Shown here: positions 7,880 to 59,880 of the stretch, one piece after another
How positions within the stretch are numbered: position 1 is the stretch's first letter
Layout: each line of letters begins with the position of its first letter
NCBI GenBank assembly: GCA_965243205.1
Contig: CBDEUK010000001.1
Coordinates: forward strand, 171,385 to 235,384
DNA: 64,000 nt
Origin: Gammaproteobacteria bacterium
GTDB taxonomy: Bacteria; Pseudomonadota; Gammaproteobacteria; Eutrophobiales; Eutrophobiaceae
Direction: 5' to 3'
Program-made: the position numbers and the translations under genes
The notes under the pieces: generated by a model
What the model was told of the DNA's origin: nothing
Database searches by the model: none
The model's input: only the letters and a program-made list of their open reading frames with translations

Positions 7880-7909
7880 TCTCCTAAAAAGAGAGTTTTA
7901 TATAAATAT

Positions 7910-9349: not shown

Positions 9350-9388
9350 AATAAATTCCTCTATTTGCTATCGTTCTTAAATTAACAA

Positions 9389-17622: not shown

Positions 17623-17862
17623 TTAATCAGCGTCTTCTTCATCAGCCCTTGGCATTTTGACATTTTTCGCTGGAACGATAGTCGAAATGGCATGTTTATA
17701 GACCAGTTGATTCACTGAATTTTTCAATAAAACCACAAATTGATCAAATGACTCAACCTGTCCTTGTAGTTTAATCCCATTGACTAAGTAAATGGATACA
17801 GGTATCCGCTCCTTTCTGAGTGCATTGAGAAATGGGTCTTGTAACGTATGCCCTTTGCTCAT
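17623..17862 (-). CDS. hfq: RNA chaperone Hfq
   Basis: [48 protein letters not shown]...[11 protein letters not shown], the Sm1/Sm2 motifs of Hfq. Confidence 0.95.
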
Positions 17863-17959
17863 TGGATTTCTCCTTATTTTTATTAATTATCCTGGCTCAC
17901 CAGCATGTGGCCAAAAAATAATCATTATTTATTGTATATATACGAATGTAATGCTGATT

Positions 17960-18898
17960 TTACCCGAAATTTTGCAGTTTTGGGTATTGAATCAGACTAT
18001 CTACTACTTTATGCCATTTTTGCTCGTCCTGCGAGTTAATAGTAATGACATTTTCTTCCTTACGAAACCATGTCATTTGGCGTTTTGCCAATTGACGCGT
18101 TGCAATAATAGCGTGTTTTTGCATTTCATCATAGTCTAGCTCACCATCTAAATATCGCCACACCTGTCTATAGCCAACTAAACGCATTGAAGGCAATGAA
18201 GAATTTAACTCTTCACGTTGAAATAATGACTCAACTTCTTCAATAAAACCCTGTTCAAGCATTTTAATAAACCGTTGTTTGCAAATATCACGATGAGCTT
18301 CTCGCGATTCAGGCATTAGTAATATTTTAACAATTTCATCATTGAGAGCTTGGTTTTGTCGATTATTCAGTAACTCACTCATGGGGTTACCAGTGATCTC
18401 ATAAACTTCTAGTGCTCGCTGAATACGCTGAGGATCATTGTAATTAATTCGTAAAGCTGACTGAGGATCGATCTGTTGTAATCGTTTGTATAAAACATCT
18501 AAACCTTGTTCTCTATATTCCTTATCTAAACGCTGGCGAATACTGGTATCTGCGCTTGGTAACTGACTCAATCCTTCTGACAGACTTTTAAAATATAAAC
18601 CCGTGCCACCTACTAACAATGGTATTTTATTTCTCGCTTGAATTTGCTTAATCTCAGACAAGGCATCGGTTCTGAATTGCGCAGCAGAATAAGTTTGAGT
18701 AGGTTCACAAATATCTATTAAACGATGCGGTGCTTTAGCTAAAACACTAGGTTCAGGCTTTGCAGTACCAATATCCATTCCCTTATACACCATGGCAGAA
18801 TCCACACTGATAATTTCCATCGGAAATTTTTGTATAAGTTCAATCGCAACATCAGTCTTGCCAGTTGCAGTAGGTCCCATTAAAAAAACAACAGCCAT
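17960..18898 (-). CDS. miaA: tRNA dimethylallyltransferase
   Basis: 312 aa; P-loop FLMGPTATGKT and other typical MiaA motifs. Confidence 0.9.
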   Translation of the reverse strand: MAVVFLMGPTATGKTDVAIELIQKFPMEIISVDSAMVYKGMDIGTAKPEPSVLAKAPHRLIDICEPTQTYSAAQFRTDALSEIKQIQARNKIPLLVGGTGLYFKSLSEGLSQLPSADTSIRQRLDKEYREQGLDVLYKRLQQIDPQSALRINYNDPQRIQRALEVYEITGNPMSELLNNRQNQALNDEIVKILLMPESREAHRDICKQRFIKMLEQGFIEEVESLFQREELNSSLPSMRLVGYRQVWRYLDGELDYDEMQKHAIIATRQLAKRQMTWFRKEENVITINSQDEQKWHKVVDSLIQYPKLQNFG

Positions 18899-18900
18899 TA

Positions 18901-43559: not shown

Positions 43560-43638
43560 ATAATGTTGATTGCTATAAATCACATATATTTGATATTGAT
43601 CATATAAATTAATAATTTAAACAATTACTATCACATAA

Positions 43639-45342
43639 ATGCATACACATCTCATTCAAGATACTGTCATTTTATTTTCATTAGCCGTTTGCGCGGTCAT
43701 TCTATTTCGACGTTTTAATCTCCCCGCTATATTAGGTTACCTATTCGTAGGTATTATTGCTGGACCTTATTTATTAGGTTGGATGCAATCTAATGAAACA
43801 ACACATTTACTGGGTGAAATCGGTGTTGTTTTTTTACTGTTTACTATTGGTCTAGAATTCTCATTTACAAAATTCCTACGCATGCGTAATGCATTATTTG
43901 GTTTAGGAGGAACTCAAGTATTAATAGGGACAATATCAGGTATGTTGATAGCAATATGGATTGGTATCAAATGGGAAGCAGCATTGATTATTGGTGGTGC
44001 TCTCGCTTTATCATCAACAGCCATTGTGCTCAAACAATTAGGCGAACAGTTAGAACTTAACAAACCTCATGGAAGAGTCGCATTAAGTATTTTATTGTTT
44101 CAAGATATAGCAGCGATCCCTTTTCTTGTCATGATCCCTGTATTTGCTTCTGATAACACTGAAAACATGAATATGCTTTTGATAATGGCATTAGGTAAAG
44201 GAGTGATTGCGTTACTGATTTTATTGGGCATAGGACGTTGGTTATTGCGACCGATATTTCATGAAGTAGCTAACTTACGTTCACAAGAATTATTTACTTT
44301 AACTGTATTGCTTATTGCTTTACTGGCTGCTTGGTTAACTTATTTAATGGGCTTATCTTTAGCACTAGGTGCTTTTATTGCTGGCATGATGCTTGGTGAA
44401 ACTGAATACAGGCATCAAATAGAAACTGAAATAAGGCCATTTCGAGATGTATTAATGGGTTTGTTTTTTATAACGGTAGGTATGCAATTAAATATATTTG
44501 CTGTTATTAATAGTTGGTATTGGGTCGGGTTATTATTAGTTGGGCTTATGTTAGGTAAAGGTATATTTATCGGTTTTCTAACTCGATTTGCAAATTACTC
44601 GAATGCAACAGCTGTAAAGTCTGGAATTGTCTTAGGTCAAGGTGGTGAATTTGGTATTGCGTTACTTAGTTTATCATTATCAACTGGCTTAATTAATCAT
44701 GAAGAAATACAACCTGTATTAGCGGCGATTATTCTATCGATGGCTTTAGCACCTTTATTTATTCGGTACAGTGAATCACTAACGAATCGTTTATTAAAGC
44801 CAAATGATAATGACGTTATCGATAATGAGGTTGAAATAGTTAATGAAGAGCGAACAAAGCATATTATTTTGTGCGGGTATGGCAGAACTGGGCAACGTAT
44901 TCAAAAAGTTTTAGAACAACAACATATTAAAACTGTTGCAATTGATAACGACTCAAAAGTTATTAATGCTACTAGAAAAAATAACCAAGAAATTTACTTC
45001 GGAGATGCTTCAGATATTCGAATTCTTGAATCGCTCGGTTTAAGCAATGCAGCGGCAGTACTAATTACATTTAATGATATAGAGCGTAGTAAAAATATCG
45101 TAACCGCTCTTAGACAAACTAATTATGAAATACCGATTATATCAAGAGCCTATAATCAGGAAGAAATGGAAATATTAATCGATGCTGGTGCTACCGAAGT
45201 AGTACCTGAGGATTTAGAAACCAGTTTGATGTTAGTGACACAACTTTTATTAATTATTGGTATGCCGCTCGATGACGTTTTGAATGAGTTGAACAATATT
45301 AAAAAAGATCATTACCATCTACTCAGTGATAGTAAAATTTAA
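43639..45342 (+). CDS. CPA2-family cation:proton antiporter with TrkA-N domain, second tandem paralogue
   Basis: 567 aa; the same architecture with motif ILCGYGRTGQ. Confidence 0.85.
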   Translation: MHTHLIQDTVILFSLAVCAVILFRRFNLPAILGYLFVGIIAGPYLLGWMQSNETTHLLGEIGVVFLLFTIGLEFSFTKFLRMRNALFGLGGTQVLIGTISGMLIAIWIGIKWEAALIIGGALALSSTAIVLKQLGEQLELNKPHGRVALSILLFQDIAAIPFLVMIPVFASDNTENMNMLLIMALGKGVIALLILLGIGRWLLRPIFHEVANLRSQELFTLTVLLIALLAAWLTYLMGLSLALGAFIAGMMLGETEYRHQIETEIRPFRDVLMGLFFITVGMQLNIFAVINSWYWVGLLLVGLMLGKGIFIGFLTRFANYSNATAVKSGIVLGQGGEFGIALLSLSLSTGLINHEEIQPVLAAIILSMALAPLFIRYSESLTNRLLKPNDNDVIDNEVEIVNEERTKHIILCGYGRTGQRIQKVLEQQHIKTVAIDNDSKVINATRKNNQEIYFGDASDIRILESLGLSNAAAVLITFNDIERSKNIVTALRQTNYEIPIISRAYNQEEMEILIDAGATEVVPEDLETSLMLVTQLLLIIGMPLDDVLNELNNIKKDHYHLLSDSKI

Positions 45343-47975: not shown

Positions 47976-48093
<118 letters not shown>

Positions 48094-48311
48094 TAAAGAG
48101 GCTAATCTTAACAATTATCAGATGGCGTGAATAGTGCGCATTTATAAACTAACTTATTGAATATTGAAAAAAAATGTTCAATTTAAAACCAGTATTTTTC
48201 CCTAAACACTTGCTATTATTACATAATGTTAATAGACCATTATCTTATAATTAGGTCTATCCATGCTATGTTATAAAATTAATCAGTATTAAAAGGCTCT
48301 AAAATAATTAT

Positions 48312-48995
48312 ATGCGGCTATTACTCATAGAAGACGATAAGGAAGTCTCTAACTACGTTCATAAAGGGATGAACGAAGCAGGTCATACCATTGATGTTGC
48401 TGATAATGGCAAAGACGGTCTATTTATGGCAACCACTGAAAAATATGATGTCATAATAGCCGATAGAATGCTGCCCGAATTGGATGGTTTAACCATTATC
48501 AAAACATTGAGGGGTGCTGATAATCAAGTCCCAGTGTTAATCTTAAGTGCTCTTGGCGACGTCGATGATCGCGTCGATGGCTTACGCTCTGGTGGCGATG
48601 ATTATTTAACCAAACCATTCGCATTCGCTGAATTACTTGCCCGTATTGAAATTTTAAGCAAACGAAATAGCACTTCTTCAAATAACGAAGTTACAAAATT
48701 ACAAACTGGCGATTTAAAGATGGATCTTCTTGCAAGAAAGGTCTCTCGAGGTTCACAAAATATCGATTTACAATCAAGAGAATTTAGGTTGCTTGAATAT
48801 ATGCTGAGGCATAAGGGACAAGTAGTTACTCGTACAATGTTGCTTGAACATGTCTGGGATTACCATTTTGACCCTCAGACCAATGTTATTGATGTACATA
48901 TCAGTCGTCTTCGCAGTAAAATTGATAAAGATTTTGATCAACAACTCATAAGAACCATCCGCGGAGCTGGCTATATCATAGAAGATGCAGGTTAG
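48312..48995 (+). CDS. OmpR/PhoB-family response regulator
   Basis: 227 aa; receiver domain (LLLIEDD...IIADRMLPELDG...LILSA) and a winged-helix C-terminus. Confidence 0.9.
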   Translation: MRLLLIEDDKEVSNYVHKGMNEAGHTIDVADNGKDGLFMATTEKYDVIIADRMLPELDGLTIIKTLRGADNQVPVLILSALGDVDDRVDGLRSGGDDYLTKPFAFAELLARIEILSKRNSTSSNNEVTKLQTGDLKMDLLARKVSRGSQNIDLQSREFRLLEYMLRHKGQVVTRTMLLEHVWDYHFDPQTNVIDVHISRLRSKIDKDFDQQLIRTIRGAGYIIEDAG

Positions 48996-50271
48996 AAATT
49001 ATACTCGAAGTTCCAGCTTCCAAATGGCTTTATTGTTTACCATTTTATGTGGTATTGCCATTGCCATCCTTGCCTATTTCACATTTTACTTCACTCGCGG
49101 ACATTTTATCGAATACACAGAAAATGTGATCGATACGGAAATAAAATTTATTTCCTTATTAAATGATGCTTCAAAAATGCCTGATGAGAACAGTATGGTT
49201 ATTTTTGTGCCATTTAATGAGGATGGCAGTCGACCTGAAAATATTCCTGATTCCATTTCGACTTTATCGGAAGGAACAGTTGTTTTTAAAAATGAAATTG
49301 ATGGTAAGACCTATGCCGCAAAAATACACACCTTTGAAGACGGCCGTAAAATTTTAGTCGGTGTTGATATCACCATGATAGATATGGATTTCAAACTCAT
49401 GGCTTGGTTAGGTAGCATCAGTATCGTATTAATCATTATCGTTATCTTAATCAGTTATTTTTTAAGTTTCTTTGTTGTAAAAGGAACTAATAAAATTGCC
49501 AAGTCTGCGCAGGAGATCATGGATACAGGCGACTTATCACGGCGTCTAGAAGTTACATCACGCTGGGATGACTTAGGTAATATGACAATGGTGCTGAATC
49601 GAATGTTGGATCGGTGCCAAGAACTAATGGAAGGTATTAAACAAGTTTCAAATAATATTGCGCATGATCTTCGAACACCTTTAACACGCATGCGAAATAC
49701 AATCGAATCGCTTGATAAATCTTCACCTTCACAAGAAACCCAGACCTTATTATCCGAAGCCGATCATTTATTAAACACTTTCAATGCTCTACTCAGAATT
49801 TCTCGAATAGAAACTGGAAAGCAATCAAGCAGCATGCATGAACTTTGCTTAGGTGAATTGATAAATGATGTTGTCTCATTTTACGAACCGCTAGCAGAAG
49901 AAAAATCTATTCAGTTACTTGTCGAAACGAATGACATAGAATATTCAGGGGATAAAAATTTATTATTTCAAGCGTATGCAAACTTAGTCGACAATGCAAT
50001 TAAATACACACCTCATCATGGCATTATAAAAATCATTCAAAACACTACCGATACAAAAAAACATCAAATTACGATAGAAGATAATGGAACAGGTATCCCT
50101 GAATCTGAAATCGATATGGTATTTGAACGTTTTTATCGCTGTGAAAAAAGCCGCAGTTCATCTGGCACAGGGCTTGGTTTAAGTTTAGTCAAAGCGGTTA
50201 TTGAACTACATAAAGGCAGTATTCAACTCATCAATATTCAAAAAGGCCTAAAAATCATTACCGTATTGTAA
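48985..50271 (+). CDS. Sensor histidine kinase (2 TM helices, HAMP, HisKA, HATPase_c)
   Basis: 428 aa; H-box IAHDLRTPLT and N/G boxes (DNAIKYT; GTGLGLS). It overlaps the response-regulator stop. Confidence 0.9.
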   Translation: MQVRNYTRSSSFQMALLFTILCGIAIAILAYFTFYFTRGHFIEYTENVIDTEIKFISLLNDASKMPDENSMVIFVPFNEDGSRPENIPDSISTLSEGTVVFKNEIDGKTYAAKIHTFEDGRKILVGVDITMIDMDFKLMAWLGSISIVLIIIVILISYFLSFFVVKGTNKIAKSAQEIMDTGDLSRRLEVTSRWDDLGNMTMVLNRMLDRCQELMEGIKQVSNNIAHDLRTPLTRMRNTIESLDKSSPSQETQTLLSEADHLLNTFNALLRISRIETGKQSSSMHELCLGELINDVVSFYEPLAEEKSIQLLVETNDIEYSGDKNLLFQAYANLVDNAIKYTPHHGIIKIIQNTTDTKKHQITIEDNGTGIPESEIDMVFERFYRCEKSRSSSGTGLGLSLVKAVIELHKGSIQLINIQKGLKIITVL

Positions 50272-50317
50272 TCATTGAGTTAGACATTGGTAAATCAGCA
50301 ATGTTGATAATCGTTTA

Positions 50318-51565
50318 ATGAAAATTGCAATTATAGGAAGTGGTATTTCAGGTTTAGGTGCTGCCTATTTACTCAACCCTGTCCATGACATTACCGTATT
50401 TGAAAAAAATGATTATATAGGCGGTCACAGTCGTACCCGAACTGTACGAATTGCTGATCAACAGATCCCTGTTGATACTGGATTCATTGTTTTTAATGAT
50501 CAAAATTATCCTAATCTTTGTGCTTTATTTGAGTTATTAGACGTTCCCATTGAAAATAGTGATATGTCCTTTGGTGTAAGCATTAACCAGGGCGATTTGG
50601 AATACAGTTCCAATAATATGTTGGCTCAAAAACGTAACTTATTCCGACCTAAATATTGGCGTATGTTAAAAGATGTTATTCATTTTAATAAACATGCTGA
50701 ATCTTATTTAAATAGATCAAACGAAGTTACATTAGAGCAATGTTTAAAAGAATTAAAATTAAGCGAATGGTTTAAACAATATTATCTACTTGCTATGGGG
50801 GCTGCAATATGGAGTTGTCCTGTAGAGACCATGTTAAAATTTCCAGCAAAAACATTCATACGCTTTTTTAAAAATCATGGCCTACTTACTATCAATCAAC
50901 ATCCACAATGGAAAACTGTTTCAGGAGGTAGTCACGAATACATTAAACGATTAACAAAACCTTTCAGCGAAAAAATAAAGCTCAATTGTGGCGTAACTAA
51001 TGTATACCTCGATGAAAACAAAATTAAAGTTGTGAATGAACAGAATGCAAGCGAAAATTTTGATCATGTAATATTTGCATGTCATGCAGACGAAGCATTG
51101 CAGATGATACAAAACACTCCAAAAGAAATTTTTAGTGTTTTAAATCATTTTCAATATCAAAAAAATAAAATTATTTTACATTCAGATACAAGCTTCATGC
51201 CTAAAAACTTAAAATGTTGGTCTAGCTGGATTTATTTAAATGAAACTAATAATTCTAATAATAATGATGTTTCATTAAGTTATTGGATGAATAACTTACA
51301 AAATATCGATAAGAAACATTCAATTATTATCACTTTGAATCCAGGTCGACAACCTGATACAAACCTAATACATGAAGAACATGAATTTTCCCATCCAATA
51401 TTTACAAGCGATGCAATTAATGCTCAAGAAGACATAAACAGTATACAAGGACAAAATAATTTATGGTTTTGTGGTGCCTATCAACGTTATGGTTTCCATG
51501 AAGATGGTTTATTAAGTGCTGTTAATTTAGTAAAAAAAATGGGTGTTAAAATTCCATGGCACTAA
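50318..51565 (+). CDS. NAD(P)/FAD-dependent amine-oxidase-like oxidoreductase (UfaD-like) of conserved lipid-modification cluster
   Basis: 415 aa; dinucleotide motif IAIIGSGISGLGAAYLL. Confidence 0.75.
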   Translation: MKIAIIGSGISGLGAAYLLNPVHDITVFEKNDYIGGHSRTRTVRIADQQIPVDTGFIVFNDQNYPNLCALFELLDVPIENSDMSFGVSINQGDLEYSSNNMLAQKRNLFRPKYWRMLKDVIHFNKHAESYLNRSNEVTLEQCLKELKLSEWFKQYYLLAMGAAIWSCPVETMLKFPAKTFIRFFKNHGLLTINQHPQWKTVSGGSHEYIKRLTKPFSEKIKLNCGVTNVYLDENKIKVVNEQNASENFDHVIFACHADEALQMIQNTPKEIFSVLNHFQYQKNKIILHSDTSFMPKNLKCWSSWIYLNETNNSNNNDVSLSYWMNNLQNIDKKHSIIITLNPGRQPDTNLIHEEHEFSHPIFTSDAINAQEDINSIQGQNNLWFCGAYQRYGFHEDGLLSAVNLVKKMGVKIPWH

Positions 51566-52329
51566 CACCTCAAATATTATTTGGTAACGTCATGCATAAA
51601 CGACTTAAACCAACAATCAATCAATTTAGATATTCTATATATTATCTTGCATTACCATTATCACAATTATCCAATATACCTATTGCTTACAATCGCCCTG
51701 GATTATTAAGCTTTTATGATAAAGATCATGGCCTATGTGATGGCACTGATTTAAAACTATGGGCAAATGACATTTTAAAACAAAAAAATTTAGATTCTTC
51801 TATCGATGAAATTGTTTTGATCTGTATGCCACGAATTTTAGGTTATGTATTCAATCCAGTAAGCTTTTGGTTATGTTTTGATAAAGAAGAAAATTTAAAA
51901 TGTGTATTGTGTGAAGTACACAATACATTCGGAGAAAAACATACCTATGTATGCAATAACTCTAACCTCAACAATATAAATCAAAGAAAAATGACAGCAA
52001 ATAAAGTATTCCATGTTTCGCCTTTTTTAAAACGAGATGGAGAATATGAATTTGAATTTCGATGGGATAAAGATCATTTTTCGGCTTATATAGATTATTA
52101 CAGTTCTGAAGGCAGACATTTATTAACATCATTAACTGGAGAGTTCGAAAACTTAACTAGAAGCTCAATTTTCAAAGCACTATTAATGCACCCTCTTGTT
52201 ACCTTAAAAACAATTGCACTAATACATTGGCAAGCTCTGAAACTCGTATTTAAAAAGATACGATATGTAAAAAAGCCTCAACAATTAGACAAAAAAATCA
52301 GTTTCACTCAAAACCTTAATAATAATTAA
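51556..52329 (+). CDS. DUF1365 family protein
   Basis: 257 aa. It sits in the conserved position between the flavoprotein and the Cfa-like methyltransferase. Confidence 0.65.
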   Translation: MALTPQILFGNVMHKRLKPTINQFRYSIYYLALPLSQLSNIPIAYNRPGLLSFYDKDHGLCDGTDLKLWANDILKQKNLDSSIDEIVLICMPRILGYVFNPVSFWLCFDKEENLKCVLCEVHNTFGEKHTYVCNNSNLNNINQRKMTANKVFHVSPFLKRDGEYEFEFRWDKDHFSAYIDYYSSEGRHLLTSLTGEFENLTRSSIFKALLMHPLVTLKTIALIHWQALKLVFKKIRYVKKPQQLDKKISFTQNLNNN

Positions 52330-52345
52330 TTGTAGAGTAATCATT

Positions 52346-53536
52346 ATGATAATCACACACTCAGATAATCTTAAAATGCTTAATAAATCTACCGCACAGA
52401 AATTGCTTTCACATCTAGATAAACTAGAGAAAGGCAATCTAAAGCTAACCACTCCTGATGGCCAAAATTATGAGTTTTCTGGGAGCCAGCCAGGTTATTC
52501 TGCCAATATTATTGTCAATAAATGGACTGTATTTTCCAATATAGCCTTAAGAGGAGATATTGGGTTTGCTGAAGATTATCGTGATGGCAATTGGCACTCA
52601 AATAATGTCAAAGATTTAGTGTGTTTAATTTTAGATAACCGTTCTGCCCTCGATAAATACACCAAAGGCAATAAGCTTCTTTCATGGATAACAAAATTAG
52701 GTTACTTCTTTAATCGAAACTCGATTAAAGGCAGTAAAAATAACATCCACGCACATTATGATTTAGGCAATGATTTTTATTCATTATGGCTGGATGAAAC
52801 AATGACTTACTCTTCAGCGATATATAAACATCCAAATGAATCGATTGAAGATGCCCAACTAAATAAATACGATAGAATCATAGAACGTTTAAATACTAAT
52901 TCAGGTAACTTACTCGAAGTTGGTTGTGGATGGGGAGGGTTTTCTGAACGTTGCTTAGAAAAACAAGATAGAGATATTAAAGGCATTACCCTTTCCGAAG
53001 AACAATATGACTTTGCAAAAAAAAGATTATTCACACGAGCTAATATTCGATTAGAAGACTACCGTCATCAAAATCGTAAATATGACAACATTGTATCAAT
53101 AGAAATGTTTGAAGCTGTTGGTGAAAAATATTGGCAAACCTATTTCGGAAAATTAAAACAATTACTGAAACAAAAAGGTAATGCCATTATTCAAACGATA
53201 ACCATCAATGATAATGATTTCCCTCGCTATCGAAACACCAGCGATTTTATTAGAAGTTATATATTTCCTGGCGGCATGCTGCCCTGCCCTAGTGTGTTTA
53301 AACAACAAGCTGAAAAAGCTGGGTTTAAAGCCTATGATGAATTCAGTTTTGGTCAAGACTATGCAAAAACATTGGATCAGTGGCTTCATGCATTTGATAA
53401 AAAAGAACCTGAACTAAAAAATTTAGGCTTTGATGATAAATTCATGCGTCTTTGGCGTTTTTATTTAGCAGCGTGTTATGCAGGTTTTAAAACTAATCGT
53501 ACTGATGTTATACAGGTTCAACTTTGTCATGCGTAA
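52346..53536 (+). CDS. Cyclopropane-fatty-acyl-phospholipid synthase family SAM-dependent methyltransferase
   Basis: 396 aa; SAM motif LEVGCGWGG and other Cfa-type motifs. Confidence 0.85.
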   Translation: MIITHSDNLKMLNKSTAQKLLSHLDKLEKGNLKLTTPDGQNYEFSGSQPGYSANIIVNKWTVFSNIALRGDIGFAEDYRDGNWHSNNVKDLVCLILDNRSALDKYTKGNKLLSWITKLGYFFNRNSIKGSKNNIHAHYDLGNDFYSLWLDETMTYSSAIYKHPNESIEDAQLNKYDRIIERLNTNSGNLLEVGCGWGGFSERCLEKQDRDIKGITLSEEQYDFAKKRLFTRANIRLEDYRHQNRKYDNIVSIEMFEAVGEKYWQTYFGKLKQLLKQKGNAIIQTITINDNDFPRYRNTSDFIRSYIFPGGMLPCPSVFKQQAEKAGFKAYDEFSFGQDYAKTLDQWLHAFDKKEPELKNLGFDDKFMRLWRFYLAACYAGFKTNRTDVIQVQLCHA

Positions 53537-54044
53537 ATACTTTATTATTCTTCTATTATTTTTCAGCCTTCAACCAAACGTTGTACTCAGCAATGACAAC
53601 ATAGTCAGTTATGTGCCTGAAGCAAAACGAGTTGGCGGTGGTCGTTTATCATTTTTATTTTGGGATGTTTACGACATAACGCTTTATGCACCTAAAGGAA
53701 GTTGGCAGCAAGATAAACCTTTCGCTATCGAGCTTTCCTACTTGATGGATATAGAAGCTAGAAAGATTGCTGACCGCTCAATTGAAGAAATGCGTAAACA
53801 AGGTATTAAAGATGAAATAAAACTTGCAACTTGGCATAACCAAATAAGTAAAATATTTCCTGATGTTAGTGAAGGAATTAAATTAGTTGGCATTTGTACA
53901 AAGAATGGAGAGAGCATTTTCATGAGGGATGGTGAAATTATTGGAAGAATATCTGATGAAGAATTCAGTGAAGCCTTTTTTAATATATGGCTAGGTGAAA
54001 AAACCAGCGCACCTGATTTACGTAGCCAATTATTAGGTGACTAG
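53529..54044 (+). CDS. Chalcone-isomerase-like (Chalcone_3) secreted protein
   Basis: Signal peptide from the internal MRKYFIILLLFF, consistent with the chalcone-isomerase-like family seen in this cluster type. The longest ORF starts at 53478 inside the cfa gene. Confidence 0.55.
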   Translation: MRKYFIILLLFFSLQPNVVLSNDNIVSYVPEAKRVGGGRLSFLFWDVYDITLYAPKGSWQQDKPFAIELSYLMDIEARKIADRSIEEMRKQGIKDEIKLATWHNQISKIFPDVSEGIKLVGICTKNGESIFMRDGEIIGRISDEEFSEAFFNIWLGEKTSAPDLRSQLLGD

Positions 54045-55366
54045 TGAACACAAATTCGCTATTAAAATCTGAACTGTTTCAATACAGTTTTATTGCTTTA
54101 CCGTTGGCTTTTGCAGGCTTGCCACTTTATATCAATGCACCAGATTTTTACGTCCGTGAATTTGCCATTAATATCGGAACCATTGGTTATATTCTCCTGA
54201 TCATTCGTTTATTTGATGCGTTTCAAGATCCATTCATAGGTTTTTTATCCGATAAATTTCATAAAAAACGACATATGATTGTTACAACGGGTGTTCTAAT
54301 ACTGGCTATTGGAATTAGTGGCATCTTTTATGGGCCTATCGGTCAAACAAGTGCAACTTTATGGTTTATTGTTTCAATGTTATTGGCAACAACTGGTTTT
54401 AGTATTTGCTCAATCAATCTAAACCAAATTGGTGGCTTTTGGAAAGAAGAACCCGAGCAAAGAACTATTATAGCCGCTTGGAGAGAAAGTTTTGCATTAC
54501 TTGGTTTACTATTAGCTGCACTATTACCAACACTTCTGCAAATAAAATTCCCCACAAATATTGCATATGAATTTCTTAATATTATTTTCCTATTTTTAAT
54601 TTTTATAGGATTGGCTTTACTTTCTGTATTTTTACTAAACACAAACAAATTTATAGAAAAAACACAGCCCGTATATATCAGCTTTCAATTCTTAAGGTTA
54701 TTTAAAGGAAAAAATTCTCTTTTCTTCTTAGTTTGTTTTTTATCTCAATTAGCATCTGCATTGCCTGCAGTTTTAGTGCTATTTTTTATTCGTGATTATT
54801 TAAATTTAGAGCACTTATCAAGTTTATTTTTATTTTTATATTTTGTTTCAGGAATTGCATTTATCTCGGTCTGGGTAAAGCTAAGTTATCAGTTTGGAAA
54901 AATGAATACATGGCTTTTATCAATGTTACTGAGTGTTATAGCTTTTGCTTGGGTATTTATATTATCACCTGGCGATTCCATGTTATATGGGATTATATGT
55001 GTACTTTCAGGTATTTCATTAGGTGCCGACCTTGCATTGCCTCCATCTATTTTAGCTGATCGGGTAACGCTTCAGAAATCTCAACCAATTTCTACGCAAT
55101 ATTTTGCAGCATTTGGATTTATACCCAAACTTACCATCTCAATTGCGAGTGGCATTGCATTCATTACATTAGATTCTATTGGTTTTAGTACTGATAATGT
55201 TAATACTGAAACTGCTTTATTTGGTCTGTTAATACTTTACAGCCTATTACCATGCTTTTTTAAACTATTAGCAATTATTACTTTATTTATCTTGCAAAAA
55301 CATGAAGGTGATGATTATGCAAATTATGAGAGGAGTTATCGCGATGGCAATTTTAACATTTATTAA
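54044..55366 (+). CDS. MFS transporter
   Basis: 440 aa with 12 TM helices. Confidence 0.8.
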   Translation: MNTNSLLKSELFQYSFIALPLAFAGLPLYINAPDFYVREFAINIGTIGYILLIIRLFDAFQDPFIGFLSDKFHKKRHMIVTTGVLILAIGISGIFYGPIGQTSATLWFIVSMLLATTGFSICSINLNQIGGFWKEEPEQRTIIAAWRESFALLGLLLAALLPTLLQIKFPTNIAYEFLNIIFLFLIFIGLALLSVFLLNTNKFIEKTQPVYISFQFLRLFKGKNSLFFLVCFLSQLASALPAVLVLFFIRDYLNLEHLSSLFLFLYFVSGIAFISVWVKLSYQFGKMNTWLLSMLLSVIAFAWVFILSPGDSMLYGIICVLSGISLGADLALPPSILADRVTLQKSQPISTQYFAAFGFIPKLTISIASGIAFITLDSIGFSTDNVNTETALFGLLILYSLLPCFFKLLAIITLFILQKHEGDDYANYERSYRDGNFNIY

Positions 55367-55847
55367 TGCGTGCTCTATGACACCACTTGAACAATACTCT
55401 GAACAAGAACCCACATTGGATCTTCAAGAATACTTCACAGGAGAAATAAAGGCTTGGGGTTTAATACAAGATCGAAAAGGCAAAGTGACAAGACGTTTTG
55501 ATGTTGTTATGAATGGAACATGGGATGATAATATCGGAACGTTAAAAGAGGATTTCCAATATTATGATGGTGAACAACAAAAAAGGATATGGACGATAAA
55601 AAAAATCGACAATGATAATTACGAAGGGACTGCTGGTGATATTATTGATAAAGCAACTGGACAGTTAAATGGTAATGCTATGCGCTGGGCTTATCAAATG
55701 AACCTTGATGTTGGCGATAAAACCTATCGAATTACTTTCGATGACTGGATGTTTCTTATGAACGATGGCGTACTGATTAACCGATCTTATTTGAAAAAAT
55801 TTGGTATCACTGTAGCTGAGCTAACCTTATTCATGCAAAAACAATAA
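55302..55847 (+). CDS. DUF3833 family lipoprotein
   Basis: Lipobox FINAC. The true start is probably an internal Met (~55317-55326). Confidence 0.55.
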   Translation: MKVMIMQIMRGVIAMAILTFINACSMTPLEQYSEQEPTLDLQEYFTGEIKAWGLIQDRKGKVTRRFDVVMNGTWDDNIGTLKEDFQYYDGEQQKRIWTIKKIDNDNYEGTAGDIIDKATGQLNGNAMRWAYQMNLDVGDKTYRITFDDWMFLMNDGVLINRSYLKKFGITVAELTLFMQKQ

Positions 55848-55853
55848 TTATTT

Positions 55854-56594
55854 ATGTCTGCTGATAAAAAAAATTACTGGATTATTGGCGCTAGCAGTGG
55901 CATAGGAAAAGCATTAGCATTTGAGCTAGATAAACAAGGCTATAATTTAATTTTATCTGCAAGAAGAAAAAAATTACTCGAAGATATTAATAACCAACTA
56001 AGCAGATCACATAATATTTTAGAACTCGATATTTCGAACATAGATTCGATTCAATCATCTATTCAAAAAATAGAATTAACATATGATAATTTGGATAGTG
56101 TTATATTTATGGCCGGTATCTATGCTCCCACATCTATTGAAGACATGAATGTAGCCGATGCAAAAAATATTATTGATATTAATTTTACTGGTTGCGTTAA
56201 TTTCGTTCATCATGTATTACCGATTTTAAAAAAACAGCAACAGGGTCAAATAGCTATCTGCTCCAGTGTCGCCGCATATAGAGGATTACCTAATGGACAA
56301 ATCTATTCTGCTACTAAAGCAGCTCTTACTAATTTTACTGAAAGCCTAAAATTAGAAATGAAAGAATATGATATCGATGTGAAGCTTATAAGCCCTGGTT
56401 TTGTAAAAACACCAATGACAGATAAAAATAATTTCAAAATGCCAATGATGATAGAACCAGAACAGGCAGCTTCTGAAATTGCTAAAGGATTGAATTCAAA
56501 TGCTTTTGAAATTCATTTTCCCAAACGTTTCACTTTTCTAATAAAATTACTCTGCCTTCTTCCATATTTTATATATTTCAGACTCATACGCTAA
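55854..56594 (+). CDS. Short-chain dehydrogenase/reductase (SDR)
   Basis: 246 aa; IIGASSGIGKA cofactor motif and YSATKAA catalytic motif. Confidence 0.85.
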   Translation: MSADKKNYWIIGASSGIGKALAFELDKQGYNLILSARRKKLLEDINNQLSRSHNILELDISNIDSIQSSIQKIELTYDNLDSVIFMAGIYAPTSIEDMNVADAKNIIDINFTGCVNFVHHVLPILKKQQQGQIAICSSVAAYRGLPNGQIYSATKAALTNFTESLKLEMKEYDIDVKLISPGFVKTPMTDKNNFKMPMMIEPEQAASEIAKGLNSNAFEIHFPKRFTFLIKLLCLLPYFIYFRLIR

Positions 56595-56610: not shown

Positions 56611-57477
56611 CTATGCTGCCTTTTGCTTATTTATTTTCATCTCAAATAGAACCAAACCTATTAATATTAAAATGGTTCCTAATATAATAGAAATAGTAAT
56701 TGCTTCATTATTTAATATGTGACCTAGGTATAAACTGCTAACAGGTGTGATTAAACTAATTAAAGATACTCTTACAGGATCTAATTTTTGTAATATAAAA
56801 TAATATAAAGAAAAACCTATTGCAGTTGCAATGACTCCCAAATAAATAATTGATGCCGTTGTTTTATAGGAGAACGATGCAACAGACTCGTCCGCCATAT
56901 AAAATGTAAATATAAACAATGGAACAGCAATCATTAAACCCCCATAGGTTGATTCAATACCAGATATCGGTGCATTAACTTTTTTAATAAATACCGCACT
57001 TAATGAATGTGCAAATGTGCTTAAAAGCATAAGTAAAATTCCAAAGCCTGCATGCTCACCAAAATCATTACTACCGCCAAAAATTAGAACTAAACCCATG
57101 AGACCTAAACCCATACCTGATAATTTTTTAGTCGTTAGATGATTTTCATTTAACACATAAGCAGAAGCGATCCCTGTTATGATTGGTGATAAACCAAATA
57201 AGACAGAAACCCAACCAGTAGGTATGTATTGAACACTGTAATAGACCAAAGACATTGCAATATAGATTCCGAGTCCAGCACAGATATAAGCTAAATAAGC
57301 TTTTTTTGAATAATTTAAATTCTGACGTGTAACAAAGAATATAAACATCAAACTTAACAAACCTATAAGCATACGCGATGTTACGCCGAACATAACGCCA
57401 CTTTGACTACTCCAATAGACAGCCAATGGCGTTGTGCTCCAGATTATAATGACACTTAAATAGGCTAATTTAATCAT
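56611..57477 (-). CDS. DMT-superfamily (EamA-like) transporter
   Basis: 288 aa with ten TM helices and two EamA repeats. Confidence 0.8.
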   Translation of the reverse strand: MIKLAYLSVIIIWSTTPLAVYWSSQSGVMFGVTSRMLIGLLSLMFIFFVTRQNLNYSKKAYLAYICAGLGIYIAMSLVYYSVQYIPTGWVSVLFGLSPIITGIASAYVLNENHLTTKKLSGMGLGLMGLVLIFGGSNDFGEHAGFGILLMLLSTFAHSLSAVFIKKVNAPISGIESTYGGLMIAVPLFIFTFYMADESVASFSYKTTASIIYLGVIATAIGFSLYYFILQKLDPVRVSLISLITPVSSLYLGHILNNEAITISIILGTILILIGLVLFEMKINKQKAA

Positions 57478-57668: not shown

Positions 57669-57955
57669 TCAATAAAACAAACTGCATTGCTAATAAATCA
57701 AATGCATAACAATTCATCACTCGCATGCTTCAATATTTATGTTTACCTACTAAGTTGTGATGTTTGCAATACTGTATTTTTAATTAATTTATAAGATTGA
57801 AAACGATTGTATTTTGATTAAAAAATCGGCTCTATAAGCCATATTTTATTAAATATTTTTAAGAATTATCCGATATTAATTGAATAATGGTGATTTATGT
57901 AAATGACCTAAACTTTTCACCAAATTTTATGCTTTTCTAATTGGTAGTCGAAAAA

Positions 57956-59077
57956 ATGAGACTAAAAATACCTAGTAAAATCAATTATTTACTATTTTCA
58001 CTCTTATTCTCGTCTACATCTCCAATTAAGGCTGACTATCTAGAGGAAAATGTCTCGCCTGGGCATGCAACTATGCAGGAATGGTTGTTACCCAAAACAC
58101 CACCTCATCCAGAAGATAACAAACCAACGGCCGCAAGGATTGAGCTGGGTAAAATGCTCTTTTTTGATAAACGATTGAGCGGTAACGGGGATATGTCATG
58201 TGCTACTTGCCATAACCCTGTACTTGGTTGGTCTGATGGTTTGCCAACTGCTAAGGGGTTCAATGATGAAGTACTTGAAAGAGCTAGCCCAACTGTTATC
58301 AATAGCGCATACAACTCAATACAAATGTGGGATGGCCGGAATAAGTCATTGGAAGAACAAGCGCTCGGACCTATCACAAGTAAAACTGAAATGAACATGG
58401 AAATAGCAAAATTAATTAATTGGTTAAATGGAAATCAAAACTACGTAAACGCATTCCAAAAAGCTTATCCAAACAGAGAAATAAACATTCAAACAGTTGC
58501 TATGGCTATAGCATCATTTGAAAGAACCATCATTAGTAATAATTCAGCTTTTGATTTTTGGGTTAAAGGCGATAAGAAAGCTATGACGAAACAGCAAGTA
58601 CAAGGATTTAAAGTATTTCTTGATCCGAACAAAGGCAACTGCGCTGCTTGTCATCTTGCACCCAATTTTACAGATGATGGATTTCATAATATTGGTTTGC
58701 AATCTTTTGCAGAAGAAAACCCAGATTTAGGTCGTTATGAACAAAAACCAGTAAAACTGATGAAAGGAGCATTCAAAACTCCCACTCTAAGAAACATCGC
58801 CTTAACAGCACCTTATTTTCATGACGGTTCTGCGAAAAATTTAGAAGAAGTCATTGATCATTATATAGAAGGTGGAATTACAAAAAGTAACCTGTCACCT
58901 AATATGAAAACACTTTCGATAAACGATGAAGAAAAACAGGCTTTAATCGCTTTTTTACAAGCATTAACTACCAAACAGGAATCAATAGCATTGCCTCATC
59001 TTCCAGAAGACCATGTTATAGATAAAAACACAACCATGCATAGTTCTATTACTAACAACATCAAAAAAGGTAAATAA
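57956..59077 (+). CDS. Di-haem cytochrome c peroxidase (CCP/MauG family)
   Basis: Two CxxCH sites (CATCHN; CAACHL) and a signal peptide from the internal MRLKIP. The longest ORF starts at 57941. Confidence 0.85.
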   Translation: MRLKIPSKINYLLFSLLFSSTSPIKADYLEENVSPGHATMQEWLLPKTPPHPEDNKPTAARIELGKMLFFDKRLSGNGDMSCATCHNPVLGWSDGLPTAKGFNDEVLERASPTVINSAYNSIQMWDGRNKSLEEQALGPITSKTEMNMEIAKLINWLNGNQNYVNAFQKAYPNREINIQTVAMAIASFERTIISNNSAFDFWVKGDKKAMTKQQVQGFKVFLDPNKGNCAACHLAPNFTDDGFHNIGLQSFAEENPDLGRYEQKPVKLMKGAFKTPTLRNIALTAPYFHDGSAKNLEEVIDHYIEGGITKSNLSPNMKTLSINDEEKQALIAFLQALTTKQESIALPHLPEDHVIDKNTTMHSSITNNIKKGK

Positions 59078-59126
59078 TCTTGATAAAAGATAACTCTTAA
59101 ATGATACACATATAGGAATTTTAATT

Positions 59127-59450
59127 ATGAACACATTGGAAAAGATATACATAACGGCAGCTGTGTTTCTGCTTTGTAATCAATACGTATTAGCTGAAGA
59201 ATATGAAGTTGGTCAATTAAATAAAGCTTTCACAACAGAATCATTGACGATAAAAAAAGGCGACACTATAAGCTTTGTTAATCATGATGATTTTTTTCAC
59301 AATATATTTAGCTTATCAGATACAGCAAGTTTTGATTTAGGCTCTTATCCAAAAGGTGAAGCGAAATCTTATACATTCGATACTGCAGGAGAAGTCGTTA
59401 TTGAATGTGCCATTCATCCAGATATGAAGCTAAAGATTACTGTCGAGTAA
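59127..59450 (+). CDS. Type-1 copper cupredoxin (amicyanin/pseudoazurin-like)
   Basis: 107 aa with a signal peptide and ligand set His (VNHDDFFHN) ... ECAIHPDM (C-x2-H-x2-M, as in amicyanin). Confidence 0.7.
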   Translation: MNTLEKIYITAAVFLLCNQYVLAEEYEVGQLNKAFTTESLTIKKGDTISFVNHDDFFHNIFSLSDTASFDLGSYPKGEAKSYTFDTAGEVVIECAIHPDMKLKITVE

Positions 59451-59457
59451 TCAAACC

Positions 59458-59880
59458 ATGAAAACTTTATTAATTCTTCTTACTTTGTCTATAAGTTGTT
59501 GGCCTTTAGTGGTTAACAGCGAACTCTATGCTATTACAGAAAGTAATTCATTCAACACGAATAAAGTGGAAATGATAAAAGATATAAAAAAAGTTCATAT
59601 TAAATCTGGTTTAGAAATAGGAAAAAATATATATACAGTTCGTTGTGCAATTTGCCATGGAGAAAACGGTGAAGGTGATGGCAAAATGACCAAGATAATT
59701 TATGACCCATCACCAGCAAACCTTACAACCAGCACATTAACGGACGAAGATATGCAACTAATTATTCATGAAGGTGGTGAAGCTGTTGGACGCTCATATC
59801 ATATGCCGCCTTGGAAAGATGAATTATCTAAGTCAGAAATATTCAGTGTTATGAACTATATAAAAGCATTAAGACAATGA
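59458..59880 (+). CDS. Mono-haem class I cytochrome c
   Basis: 140 aa with a signal peptide, CAICHG and a downstream Met (YHMPPW). Confidence 0.8.

Follow-up and report, generated by a model that had tools for sequence, protein, structure and literature searches.

A CusR/HprR-family two-component system predicted to control a UfaD-UfaO-UfaM-type lipid-modification cluster

Genes at the locus

The window, that is the whole 64-kb stretch of DNA analysed here, contains between positions 48312 and 56594 nine genes, all on the plus strand and with Pfam matches far above the curated cut-offs:

48312..48995, plus strand: response regulator (RR) of the OmpR/PhoB class (Pfam Response_reg and Trans_reg_C)
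48985..50271, plus strand: sensor histidine kinase (HK; Pfam HAMP, HisKA and HATPase_c)
50318..51565, plus strand: UfaD-like FAD-dependent fatty-acyl desaturase, amine-oxidase/phytoene-desaturase fold (Pfam Amino_oxidase and NAD_binding_8)
51556..52329, plus strand: UfaO-like DUF1365 protein (Pfam DUF1365, E 1e-75, full length)
52376..53536, plus strand: CMAS-family SAM-dependent fatty-acyl methyltransferase, proposed to be UfaM-type (Pfam CMAS, E 1e-78)
53529..54044, plus strand: chalcone-isomerase-like (CHI-like; Pfam Chalcone_3) protein with signal peptide
54044..55366, plus strand: MFS_2 (GPH-type) inner-membrane transporter (Pfam MFS_2, E 3.5e-48)
55302..55847, plus strand: DUF3833 lipoprotein with lipobox FINAC (Pfam, E 5e-69)
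55854..56594, plus strand: short-chain dehydrogenase/reductase (SDR) with hydrophobic C-terminal tail (Pfam adh_short)

Pfam thus bears out the gene set that an earlier note on this DNA had named (RR, HK, FAD oxidoreductase, DUF1365, CMAS, CHI-like, MFS, DUF3833, SDR). The unit lies between the SRP RNA gene (ffs, 47987-48083, minus strand) on its upstream side and an EamA gene (56611-57477) that converges on it downstream. The HK gene overlaps the RR gene by 11 nt, its start being placed at ATG 48985 because the N-terminal motif RxYxxSSSFxMALLF is common to the homologues, and ufaO overlaps ufaD by 10 nt. For three genes homologues or signal sequences point to starts within the longest open reading frame. 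The frame of the CMAS gene begins at 52346 (52346-53536), and its true start is most likely ATG 52376, giving 386 residues as in homologues; that of the Chalcone_3 gene begins at 53478 (53478-54044), and a start at 53529 is most likely, which leaves a signal peptide (homologues have 170-178 residues; the N-terminus counted from Met18 is MRKYFIILLLFFSLQPNVVLS) and makes the protein probably periplasmic; and for the DUF3833 gene a start near 55326 is most likely, with its lipobox retained. Over 10 close loci the DUF3833 protein has 67-75% identity, as compared to 53-57% for L030 and L042, and the MFS_2 gene is found in most cluster-linked loci and missing from L112 and L042.

Assignment to furan-fatty-acid synthesis

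What does this cluster make? In the characterised pathway UfaD is an FAD desaturase and UfaO a DUF1365 oxygenase, with a CMAS-family methylase encoded alongside; the UfaO proteins RSP1090 and RPA2570 are DUF1365 proteins, and in Rhodobacter UfaO is the O2-dependent enzyme that forms the furan ring (PMC7380195). The gene set of the window corresponds to the furan-fatty-acid loci RSP1091-1087 of R. sphaeroides and RPA2571-2568 of R. palustris, with the UfaD-like gene in the position, and beside the DUF1365 partner, of the characterised UfaD genes RSP1091 and RPA2571 (PMC7380195), so that synteny agrees with the proposed kinship to UfaD and UfaO. The SDR, too, has 246 residues as compared to 245 for RSP1087 in the same position, and the UfaD-like protein shares 40-43% identity with its homologues from ChrR-linked and from alphaproteobacterial clusters. 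The earlier note had seen here the Ufa module of Rhodobacter including UfaM; the match of the gene set stands, but UfaM of R. sphaeroides (RSP2144) is encoded outside the operon. R. palustris and Halomonas have UfaM as the methylase within the cluster (PMC12089945 for Halomonas), and by analogy to these the methyltransferase of the window is assigned as UfaM.

Alternatively, the methyltransferase could be a true Cfa and the cluster could make cyclopropane fatty acids or another non-furan modification, with the UfaD- and UfaO-like proteins doing otherwise. The Pfam family is indeed CMAS, cyclopropane synthases are the nearest among solved structures, Glu239 and Tyr317 are kept as ligands of bicarbonate, and plant cyclopropane synthases with the same Cys-to-Ser and His-to-Gln changes still cyclopropanate (PMC3132707). 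However, the protein misses both NCBIfam Cfa equivalog cut-offs (250 vs 400 and 258 vs 600), is 32% identical to E. coli Cfa and 34% to the ChrR-linked Pseudoalteromonas enzyme, and its gene always occurs together with UfaD- and UfaO-type genes, for which the only characterised role is furan-fatty-acid synthesis. Moreover, the in-cluster methylases of R. palustris and Halomonas yielded 11-methyl-12-octadecenoate (PMC12089945 for Halomonas). We consider the cyclopropane alternative unlikely; by analogy, the cluster most likely makes methylated and furan fatty acids.

Conserved linkage to a two-component system

The RR-HK pair lies directly upstream of a UfaD-like gene in every HK orthologue with visible context, which amounts to 13 further loci found by HK identity of 31-65% or by a sensor-domain match only. 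The rest of the cluster is present in all of these loci that reach far enough, and the flanks differ wherever visible. The order RR-HK-ufaD-ufaO-CMAS-CHI-(MFS)-DUF3833-SDR is kept in nine of the nine further loci with HK identity of at least 53% (the sequence of one, L002, begins at the RR gene), and the flanks differ among these nine except between L022 and L110, both Methylotenera-type. L030, L031 and L042 (HK identity 42-51%) carry the arrangement too, and in L117, reached only via the sensor domain, a UfaD-like open reading frame follows the HK gene; more distant HK relatives in the same metagenome scan are without the cluster. In addition, at least 18 contigs are apparently common to the best-120 lists for the CMAS protein and the HK. 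Because the same order recurs at 13 other loci with differing surroundings where visible, the arrangement, judged by these comparisons, is not due to chance. Photolyase-family (DPRP), photolyase or SOUL genes adjoin the cluster in L024, L026, L111 and L113, in keeping with a stress context.

The ufa operon of R. sphaeroides is transcribed divergently from rpoE-chrR (PMC3546557), and ChrR and its sigma factor also adjoin the cluster in Pseudoalteromonas and Azospirillum replicons. In the window there is no ECF sigma gene, and Pfam scans of all 59 open reading frames of at least 110 residues (nine without any Pfam match) plus ybaB and cupredoxin detected no sigma-70 or ChrR domain, in agreement with the claim that no ECF sigma/anti-sigma pair precedes the cluster. 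A sigmaE-type promoter of the cluster's own, which the earlier note had named as evidence against control by the two-component system, was searched for as TGATC-N16-18-CGTA and gave 0 matches in the 64 kb, as compared to 3 and 4 motifs, before the expected genes, in two ChrR-linked control loci. The different signal wiring suggested by that note from the RR and HK genes in front of the cluster is thus strengthened by the conservation of this linkage over many loci and by an HprR/CusR-type operator-like site between the HK and ufaD genes.

Operator- and promoter-like elements

By sequence the RR, with Asp51 as predicted phospho-acceptor, can be placed more precisely within the OmpR family, in its CusR/HprR/CopR branch. 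Its best NCBIfam match is TIGR01387 cztR_silR_copR (259.5 bits vs a cut-off of 279.2), it shares 49% identity with E. coli CusR and 43% with HprR, and all three have the recognition-helix motif TNxIDVxxxRLRxKID; the RRs of other cluster-linked loci are 63-88% identical to it. The elements proposed as its targets are the following:

50257..50272, plus strand: Box 1, ATTACCGTATTGTAAT, predicted operator for the RR, lying across the end of the HK gene (last codons and stop)
50281-50286, plus strand: weak -35-like TAGACA of predicted promoter P1 (gapless alignment of 10 loci)
50290-50293, plus strand: conserved GTAA motif of P1 (same alignment)
50306..50311, plus strand: GATAAT, -10-like hexamer of P1, with 6 nt between its end and the ufaD ATG (50318)
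52315-52330, plus strand: Box 2, candidate degenerate site CTTAATAATAATTAAT, overlapping the ufaO stop codon
52337-52341, plus strand: third half-site GTAAT following Box 2 (both together 52315..52341)
52364..52369, plus strand: GATAAT, -10-like hexamer of predicted promoter P2, with 6 nt between its end and the probable CMAS start ATG 52376

The exact pattern ATTAC-N6-GTAAT has two matches in the window, with 0.15 expected, and as Box 1 the palindrome is found at the identical position, over the HK stop codon, in all 10 close loci. The experimentally defined box of E. coli HprR/CusR is CATTACAAAATTGTAATG (PMC9302797), and Box 1 of L022 is exactly this sequence. The centre of Box 1 lies 53.5 bp before the ufaD ATG, and in all 10 loci this ATG follows the HK stop by 45-46 nt. 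Within this gap the alignment of 10 loci reveals, in a spacer that otherwise varies, cATAGa conserved around -37 to -32 and GTAA unchanged in all loci at -28 to -25, and in every locus a cATAaT-like hexamer with invariant A2 and T6, placed 6 nt before the presumed ufaD ATG (in L024 taken as the second of two adjacent ATGs). A TAGAC -35-like element precedes the -10 by 17 nt in most loci; the spacer of the window is 19 nt. From the -10-like hexamer so close to the ATG an RR-activated, leaderless ufaD mRNA is predicted. Leaderless mRNAs are uncommon in Proteobacteria, which counts against this reading of P1; the absence of a Shine-Dalgarno motif before ufaD says little, as such motifs are scarce throughout the window (17 of 59 open reading frames).

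Could the palindromes simply reflect coding constraint on the C-termini (IITxL-stop and NLTxx-stop), the cluster being co-transcribed with RR and HK from an upstream promoter? Box 1 lies mostly in coding sequence and the C-terminal peptide IITxL is conserved, which could contribute; furthermore, some read-through into ufaD is certain, since the HK-ufaD gap is short (46 nt) and no terminator was found in it. However, the choice among synonymous codons is invariant at positions that the box requires and unconstrained elsewhere: the terminal Leu of HK is encoded by TTG in 10 of 10 loci, although these genes use TTG for just 6-35% of their Leu residues, and TAA is the stop in 10 of 10, whereas the third position of the Thr codon inside the N6 spacer varies freely. 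The base following the stop is T in nine of 10 loci, and in the distant L117 the box, ATTACATAAAGTTAAT, lies wholly after the HK stop codon. The motif is, moreover, the experimentally defined operator of the closest characterised relatives of the RR, it recurs on the unrelated ufaO stop with the same spacing to the next ATG, and conservation extends to the -10-like, -35-like and GTAA motifs, which are non-coding. Coding constraint instead of operators is thus very unlikely.

At the ufaO stop codon a box followed by GTAA 11 bp on is found in eight of 10 loci, which makes it a second box over another gene's stop with the same 46-47 nt geometry. The CMAS ATG lies at +47 past the ufaO stop in seven of 10 loci and at +48 in L026, and a TAnnnT hexamer ends 6 nt before it in seven of those eight. 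The triple half-site layout is that of E. coli hiuH, CATTACAAAATTGTAATG-ctgct-GTAAGG. In the window Box 2 mismatches three of 10 specified bases and falls under the PWM threshold, and it is proposed as an RR site with lower confidence than Box 1.

The sensor kinase and its signal

The HK has two transmembrane helices flanking a periplasmic domain of about 100 residues, followed by HAMP, HisKA (His227) and HATPase. In an AlphaFold model (pLDDT 75) the sensor consists of a long helix and a five-strand sheet, and it has no detectable relative among solved structures. The system might be an ordinary CopRS/CusRS-type copper/silver or HprSR-type HOCl/H2O2 sensor that controls the cluster within a metal or oxidant response, triggered by periplasmic Cu(I)/Ag(I) or by a chlorine or peroxide oxidant and not by a light- or lipid-derived cue. 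The best NCBIfam families of both RR and HK are heavy-metal two-component families, the cytoplasmic part of the HK resembles HprS (PDB 9epn, 117 bits), and the operator is identical to the shared CusR/HprR box. A GHF motif right after TM1 in close HK homologues presumably resembles His42-Phe43 of CusS. However, RR and HK both score under the cut-offs of these families, and the sensor profile retrieves only 96 clusters among 1.84 billion representatives and no CusS or HprS sensor among solved structures, suggesting a small separate family, not a broad HK sensor family. His40, like Cys22, is invariant in close homologues and not conserved in distant family members, which also speaks against a simple redox switch based on Cys or His. 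Finally, copper-efflux or msrPQ genes lie beside the system in no locus, and the lipid cluster in all. An ordinary metal or oxidant sensor thus seems rather improbable.

Proposed mode of action

We favor, with a probability of roughly 0.7, a self-contained regulon in which the CusR/HprR-family two-component system directly controls the UfaD-UfaO-UfaM-type cluster for methylated and furan fatty acids. Gene content, linkage, the operator- and promoter-like elements with their conservation, and the absence of the sigmaE motif are observed; the steps that follow are a model. The family-specific periplasmic and membrane sensor of the HK would perceive a signal at the envelope, most likely damage of a photo-oxidative or peroxide type, and the HK would then phosphorylate the RR on Asp51. 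The phosphorylated RR would bind the palindrome over the kinase stop codon and activate, rather than repress, the weak sigma-70 promoter P1, where transcription would start such that the ufaD message is leaderless or nearly so, and a second, weaker module at the ufaO stop may boost the methyltransferase and the downstream envelope genes. The methyltransferase would then methylate a phospholipid-bound cis-unsaturated acyl chain, UfaD would desaturate the product and UfaO would close the furan ring with O2, with the periplasmic CHI-like protein, the DUF3833 lipoprotein, the MFS transporter and the SDR as probable accessories. Methylated and furan fatty acids are membrane lipids that scavenge reactive oxygen. 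No description of an RR-HK-controlled Ufa-type cluster was found in the published literature, and the locus would represent a regulatory variant of a known lipid pathway, in which a sensor and its DNA-binding partner replace the sigma factor known elsewhere. If this is true, the predicted binding site for the switch of the cluster is written across a stop codon.

The RR and HK genes would be translationally coupled and have their own promoter downstream of ffs, where a further box-like sequence is found:

48218..48233, plus strand: ATTACATAATGTTAAT, possible box for autoregulation by the RR, 94 nt ahead of the RR start codon

This sequence departs from ATTAC-N6-GTAAT at a single base, scores 12-16 with the PWM, and almost equals the box that follows the HK stop in L117. 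Since boxes upstream of the RR gene are not found in most loci, autoregulation is proposed tentatively; box-like sites in this position are also present in L031 and, by eye, in L001.

Gene content and borders of the cluster

Nine densely packed genes on the + strand occupy window positions 48312-56594, and all are assigned by Pfam with scores far beyond the curated cut-offs. The genes, together with the predicted operator called box 1 here, are as follows.

48312-48995, + strand, OmpR-type response regulator (RR; Pfam)
48985-50271, + strand, HAMP-HisKA-HATPase histidine kinase (HK; Pfam), overlapping the RR gene by 11 nt
50257-50272, + strand, box 1, predicted RR operator, tCATTACCGTATTGTAATc, covering the final HK codons and the stop
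50318-51565, + strand, FAD protein of amine-oxidase fold (ufaD-like; Pfam Amino_oxidase/NAD_binding_8), N-terminal peptide MKIAIIG
51556-52329, + strand, DUF1365 protein (ufaO-like; Pfam E 1e-75), overlapping the ufaD-like gene by 10 nt
ORF from 52346, + strand, CMAS-family methyltransferase (Pfam), start moved to 52376 by homologue comparison (386 aa)
start moved to 53529 by homologue comparison, exposing a signal peptide, + strand, chalcone-isomerase-like (CHI-like, Chalcone_3) gene (Pfam)
between the CHI-like and DUF3833 genes, + strand, MFS_2 transporter (Pfam)
start moved to about 55326 by homologue comparison, + strand, DUF3833 gene with lipobox FINAC (Pfam)
end at 56594, + strand, SDR of 246 aa (Pfam)

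Upstream the block is bordered by the gene of the bacterial small SRP RNA (ffs; Rfam RF00169, 68 bits) on the minus strand at 47987-48083, beyond which lies dnaX-ybaB-recR, so that ffs sits between dnaX and the RR gene. The adjacency of ffs and RR is also visible in the related loci L001 and L002. The downstream border is a convergent EamA gene.

Relation to known furan fatty-acid loci

The cluster is best described as a set of probable furan/methyl fatty-acid genes that, instead of sigmaE-ChrR, has captured a two-component system (TCS) of the CusR/HprR family; the pathway is known, and its regulation here is a variant. In Rhodobacter sphaeroides, UfaD and UfaO are encoded by the operon RSP1091-1087. 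UfaD is an FAD desaturase with the product 11Me-10t,12t-18:2, and UfaO a DUF1365 protein that by insertion of O2 yields the furan acid 9M5-FuFA; RSP1089, RSP1088 and RSP1087 are dispensable for 9M5-FuFA, and the methylase UfaM (RSP2144) is encoded away from this operon (PMC7380195). In Rhodopseudomonas palustris (locus RPA2571-2568) ufaD, ufaO and ufaM are contiguous and sufficient (PMC7380195), and in Halomonas the three ufa genes are likewise consecutive, the methylase producing 11-methyl-octadec-12-enoate when expressed in E. coli (PMC12089945).

In the window a gene of the amine-oxidase/phytoene-desaturase fold is directly followed by a DUF1365 gene, the pairing of RSP1091/RSP1090, and the core genes and their order (desaturase-like gene, overlapping DUF1365 gene, CMAS methylase, SDR at the end) are those of RSP1091-1087 and RPA2571-2568, down to the length of the terminal SDR (246 versus 245 aa). 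Both the gene set described in the earlier note, with RR and HK ahead of the cluster, and its designation as an Ufa-like module are thereby borne out. Clusters linked to ChrR in Pseudoalteromonas and Azospirillum have the DUF3833 gene in common with the window; the CHI-like gene is common to the window and Pseudoalteromonas, and the MFS gene to the window and Azospirillum. The window proteins are only 27-44% identical to those of the ChrR-linked clusters.

Could the methyltransferase be a cyclopropane synthase of the E. coli type? It has the fold and the SAM-binding motifs of Cfa (CMAS Pfam family) but is only 32% identical to it and fails both NCBIfam Cfa equivalog models (PRK11705, 250 against a cut-off of 400; NF053839, 258 against 600), and its neighbours are ufaD- and ufaO-like genes. 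Among the bicarbonate ligands of Cfa, C139, E239, H266, I268 and Y317 (PMC3132707), Glu239 and Tyr317 are kept, with Ser in place of Cys139 and Gln in place of His266. Since plant cyclopropane synthases share the Cys-to-Ser and His-to-Gln changes (PMC3132707), these residues cannot decide the chemistry and were dropped as a discriminator between Cfa and UfaM. By its sequence the enzyme is no E. coli-type Cfa, and from the gene context we infer a UfaM-type methylase, as the methylases encoded within the clusters of R. palustris and Halomonas are UfaM.

Linkage of the two-component system to the cluster

HK homologues were traced to their own contigs and the gene neighbourhoods compared. All orthologues of at least 53% identity have RR and HK directly ahead of the same cluster; these loci are L001, L002, L022/23 (Methylotenera), L024/25 (TARA and other marine scaffolds), L026 (a MAG labelled Alphaproteobacteria), L110, L111, L112 and L113. 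The flanking genes vary from locus to locus, except that the Methylotenera-type loci L022 and L110 have their flanks in common. A metagenome scan with the HK alignment, which used generic kinase patterns, added three remoter HKs (42-51% identity) with the same layout; only these three of the 80 loci were orthologues, and the remainder, with full-length identities up to about 36%, are without the cluster and served as negative set. In L117, a locus reached via the sensor domain only, the ORF behind RR and HK is incomplete and corresponds to the N-terminus of UfaD. A search of genome contigs with the HK returned a single full-length relative (35% identity, without the cluster) and otherwise unrelated Firmicute kinases. 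The TCS is truly linked to the cluster.

In L112 a tyrosine integrase and restriction/defence-like genes (7573-8838) lie immediately upstream of the RR-HK-cluster unit, a neighbourhood compatible with a module that moves horizontally as one unit.

Predicted operators and promoters

The curated NCBIfam families closest to the RR are CopR, CusR and HprR. These "heavy-metal" families are the nearest for RR and HK alike, yet both proteins fall outside the cut-offs (RR: TIGR01387, 259.5 against 279.2; CusR equivalog, 256.7 against 420; HprR, 217 against 353; HK: TIGR01386, 172.7 against 292.55). The RR shares 49% identity with E. coli CusR and 43% with HprR, and has their recognition-helix motif. 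The pattern ATTAC-N6-GTAAT occurs twice in the 64 kb, compared with 0.15 matches expected, and one of the two is box 1 (50257-50272), a predicted operator of the CATTAC-N6-GTAATG type near a predicted promoter. In Methylotenera (L022) box 1 reads CATTACAAAATTGTAATG, letter for letter the HprR/CusR box of the E. coli hprR-hiuH intergenic region (PMC9302797).

In each of the ten close loci that were aligned, the palindrome of box 1 spans the stop codon of HK, which raises the question whether it merely reflects the coding sequence. The terminal Leu of HK is TTG in 10/10 loci, a codon used for only 6-35% of Leu residues in these genes; the stop is TAA in all 10, followed by T in nine; the third base of the Thr codon inside the N6 spacer varies freely; and in L117 the box lies wholly 3' of the stop codon. 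With TTG and TAA fixed, the Thr third base free and the L117 box past the stop, coding constraint cannot explain the conservation of this predicted operator.

The distance from the HK stop to the ufaD ATG is 45-46 nt in every close locus (for L024 the second of two adjacent ATGs was taken as start). A cATAaT hexamer with invariant A2 and T6 ends 6 nt ahead of this ATG in 10/10 loci (GATAAT at 50306-50311 in the window), and in most loci a TAGAC-like element precedes it by 17 nt, with an invariant GTAA within the spacer. Together these elements would be a complete sigma-70 promoter (P1) with its predicted start at the A of the ufaD ATG; counted from that start, the centre of the predicted operator lies at -53.5, a position consistent with activation.

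As criterion for a leaderless message we took a -10 hexamer some 7 nt ahead of the start codon and a transcript beginning at the A of the ATG. The lack of a Shine-Dalgarno motif before ufaD was rejected as evidence, as it is uninformative where such motifs are rare throughout: only 17 of 59 window ORFs have a Shine-Dalgarno core 4-18 nt ahead of the listed start, which means either that the organism makes little use of it or that many of the longest-ORF starts are wrong. The prediction of a leaderless ufaD mRNA is drawn solely from the conserved position of the hexamer. Box and hexamer are 33 nt apart, and in E. coli the box is 32 nt away from a TATCCT hexamer that precedes hiuH; as no mapped transcription start of E. 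coli hiuH was found in the literature, this likeness can only be suggestive.

The arrangement recurs within the operon. A box (box 2) lies across the ufaO stop codon in eight of the ten loci, with a third GTAA half-site 11 bp further downstream, a threefold arrangement also seen at E. coli hiuH. The methyltransferase ATG follows 47-48 nt past the ufaO stop, and 7/8 loci with this second module have a TAnnnT hexamer that ends 6 nt ahead of this ATG. The window copy of box 2 is degenerate, CTTAATAATAATTAAT, and the corresponding promoter (P2) is therefore rated lower there. Overall, the operators are predicted to be embedded in stop codons and to serve two leaderless internal promoters. In addition, a box with one mismatch lies 94 nt before the RR gene (48218-48233), tentatively suggesting autoregulation of RR in the lineage of the window.

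The second exact match of the pattern (59436-59451, ATTACTGTCGAGTAAT) covers the stop codon of a cupredoxin gene (59127-59450), 6 nt ahead of a cytochrome c gene (59458-59880) and adjoining a di-haem cytochrome c peroxidase gene (57941-59077). As an operator it is probably a chance match, its geometry being unlike that of P1 and P2 and its sequence following from the cupredoxin C-terminus KITVE*. A link of the TCS to the peroxide-related genes at 57941-59880 is possible.

Is the cluster under sigmaE-ChrR control after all? The promoter consensus of sigmaE(ChrR) is TGATCC-N16-CGTA (PMC5507510, PMC4336711). Neither this motif nor the relaxed form TGATC-N16-18-CGTA has a match in the whole 64-kb window, and in all TCS-linked loci the regions ahead of the RR gene and of ufaD are free of sigmaE motifs. 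The ChrR-linked control loci L028 and L029 have 3 and 4 matches, against 0.05-0.13 expected, located before the sigma gene and the cluster. Pfam detected no ECF sigma factor, ChrR or photolyase among the 59 window ORFs of at least 110 aa plus ybaB and the cupredoxin gene, nine ORFs having no Pfam match, and the other TCS-linked loci have no rpoE-chrR pair annotated in their flanks; in the Pseudoalteromonas and Azospirillum replicons a ChrR anti-sigma factor and an ECF sigma factor stand beside the cluster. Known loci of the R. sphaeroides/R. palustris type, which belong to the sigmaE-ChrR singlet-oxygen regulon, have rpoE-chrR nearby and TGATCC-N16-CGTA promoters, whereas the window has a CusR/HprR-type RR-HK pair fused to the front of the operon and HprR-type boxes. 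The earlier note had proposed that a TCS takes the place of the ECF sigma/anti-sigma pair, with different signal wiring as the consequence, and had named a sigmaE-type promoter of the cluster's own as something that would speak against it. The layout recurs across loci, a predicted HprR-type box lies between HK and ufaD, and the sigmaE motif is absent from the window with positive controls, all of which supports the proposal.

The sensor kinase and its candidate signal

A profile of the sensor region alone matched only 96 clusters among 1.84 billion representatives, which indicates that HK belongs to a small, dedicated kinase family. No sensor domain of the CusS/HprS kind was detected; in the full-length HK profile, matches to solved structures begin at position 175. 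In the AlphaFold model of the sensor region (pLDDT 75), a first transmembrane segment (TM1) leads into a long helix, followed by a five-strand sheet and TM2; a Foldseek search with this model gave no significant match (best E 0.04), the top hits being weak Cache/PDC-type sensor domains. Cys22 (in TM1), His40 and Met139 are invariant among the close HK homologues and are not kept in distant members, which weakens a Cys22/His40 redox switch in analogy to Cys165 of HprS. Family-wide in both alignments, A1 and A3, including distant members with variable periplasmic residues, is a cytoplasmic RxYxxSSSF-K-MA motif before TM1 (HK residues 1-20, window 48985-49044).

Comparison with E. coli HprSR (YedVW) and CusSR reveals an RR 43-49% identical with conserved recognition helix, the palindrome, the GTAA half-site 11 bp downstream, a kinase core similar to HprS and a common theme of oxidative or envelope stress. 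The sensor domain, however, is unrelated in sequence, and the target is a lipid-modification operon instead of methionine-sulfoxide repair or copper efflux. Furthermore, the predicted operator of the window lies on a stop codon inside the operon with a predicted leaderless transcript, whereas the E. coli box lies in a divergent intergenic region at hiuH-msrPQ. By family analogy, Cu/Ag or chlorine and peroxide oxidants are possible signals.

The gene context points to photo-oxidative stress as the signal, which is the weakest part of our account. Genes for DPRP photolyase-family proteins, photolyases, SOUL haem-binding proteins and extra SDRs often flank TCS-linked clusters elsewhere, and the ChrR-linked cluster of Pseudoalteromonas (L028) likewise has photolyase and extra SDR genes as neighbours; no photolyase-related, SOUL or extra SDR gene was found near the cluster in the window. 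The flanking photolyase-related, SOUL and SDR genes of TCS-linked loci are located at:

L024/L025 (marine scaffolds), 17649-20551
L026 (MAG labelled Alphaproteobacteria), 6225-9246
L111, 17654-18184
L113, 4191-5624 and 17696-18292

It could even be imagined, although we consider it rather unlikely, that HK is the first known representative of a small, dedicated family of sensors (about 100 sequence clusters) whose members monitor the membrane itself, in its oxidation or its physical state. In several lineages of proteobacteria it would then have taken over from sigmaE-ChrR as the master switch of lipid responses to photo-oxidation. It might respond to acyl chains that have become oxidised, or to the furan or methylated lipids that its own operon produces. 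Candidate sensing elements would be the SSSF-K-MA motif next to the membrane and the PDC-like domain in the periplasm, and two further products of the operon, the periplasmic CHI-like lipid-binding protein and the DUF3833 lipoprotein, might act as co-sensors. If this were true, the stop-codon operators and the two leaderless internal transcripts would uncouple expression of the enzymes from that of the sensor.

Implications of the proposed rewiring

Furan fatty acids are scavengers of radicals and singlet oxygen and are of biological and industrial interest. To our knowledge, sigmaE-ChrR is the only described bacterial control circuit for them, and in the literature we found neither a link of DUF1365, DUF3833 or furan fatty acids to a TCS nor a description of this wiring. 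A second, independent circuit would make the pathway a portable stress module wired to different sensors by lineage, in this case to a CusR/HprR-type TCS whose predicted operator is easy to recognise. The rewiring is widespread and its architecture unusually compact, with a stop-codon operator, a fixed spacing to the next ATG and a predicted leaderless message, the module occurring twice in one operon. A constitutive kinase or a phosphomimetic RR would offer a simple handle for induction of the pathway, and the TCS allows one to ask which signal prompts non-phototrophs, methylotrophs and marine bacteria among them, to make these lipids.

Other features of the window

Compared with the E. coli map, the order of the genes rpsF/rlmB/rnr/purA/hflCKX/miaA/mutL/amiB/tsaE/nnr/orn in the window points to a gammaproteobacterium. 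Two tandem genes for KefB/KefC-like K+/H+ antiporters (Na_H_Exchanger and TrkA_N) are found at 41784-45342, where L001 has a single homologue at the equivalent place. A run of small + strand ORFs at 33500-39080, comprising a DUF4062 gene (35469-36518), two DUF1801 genes, a GFA-family gene and several ORFs without Pfam match, may be a small accessory island. On the minus strand, a DUF1800/DUF1501 gene pair (7910-11257) adjoins two ORFs without Pfam match (6512-7879).
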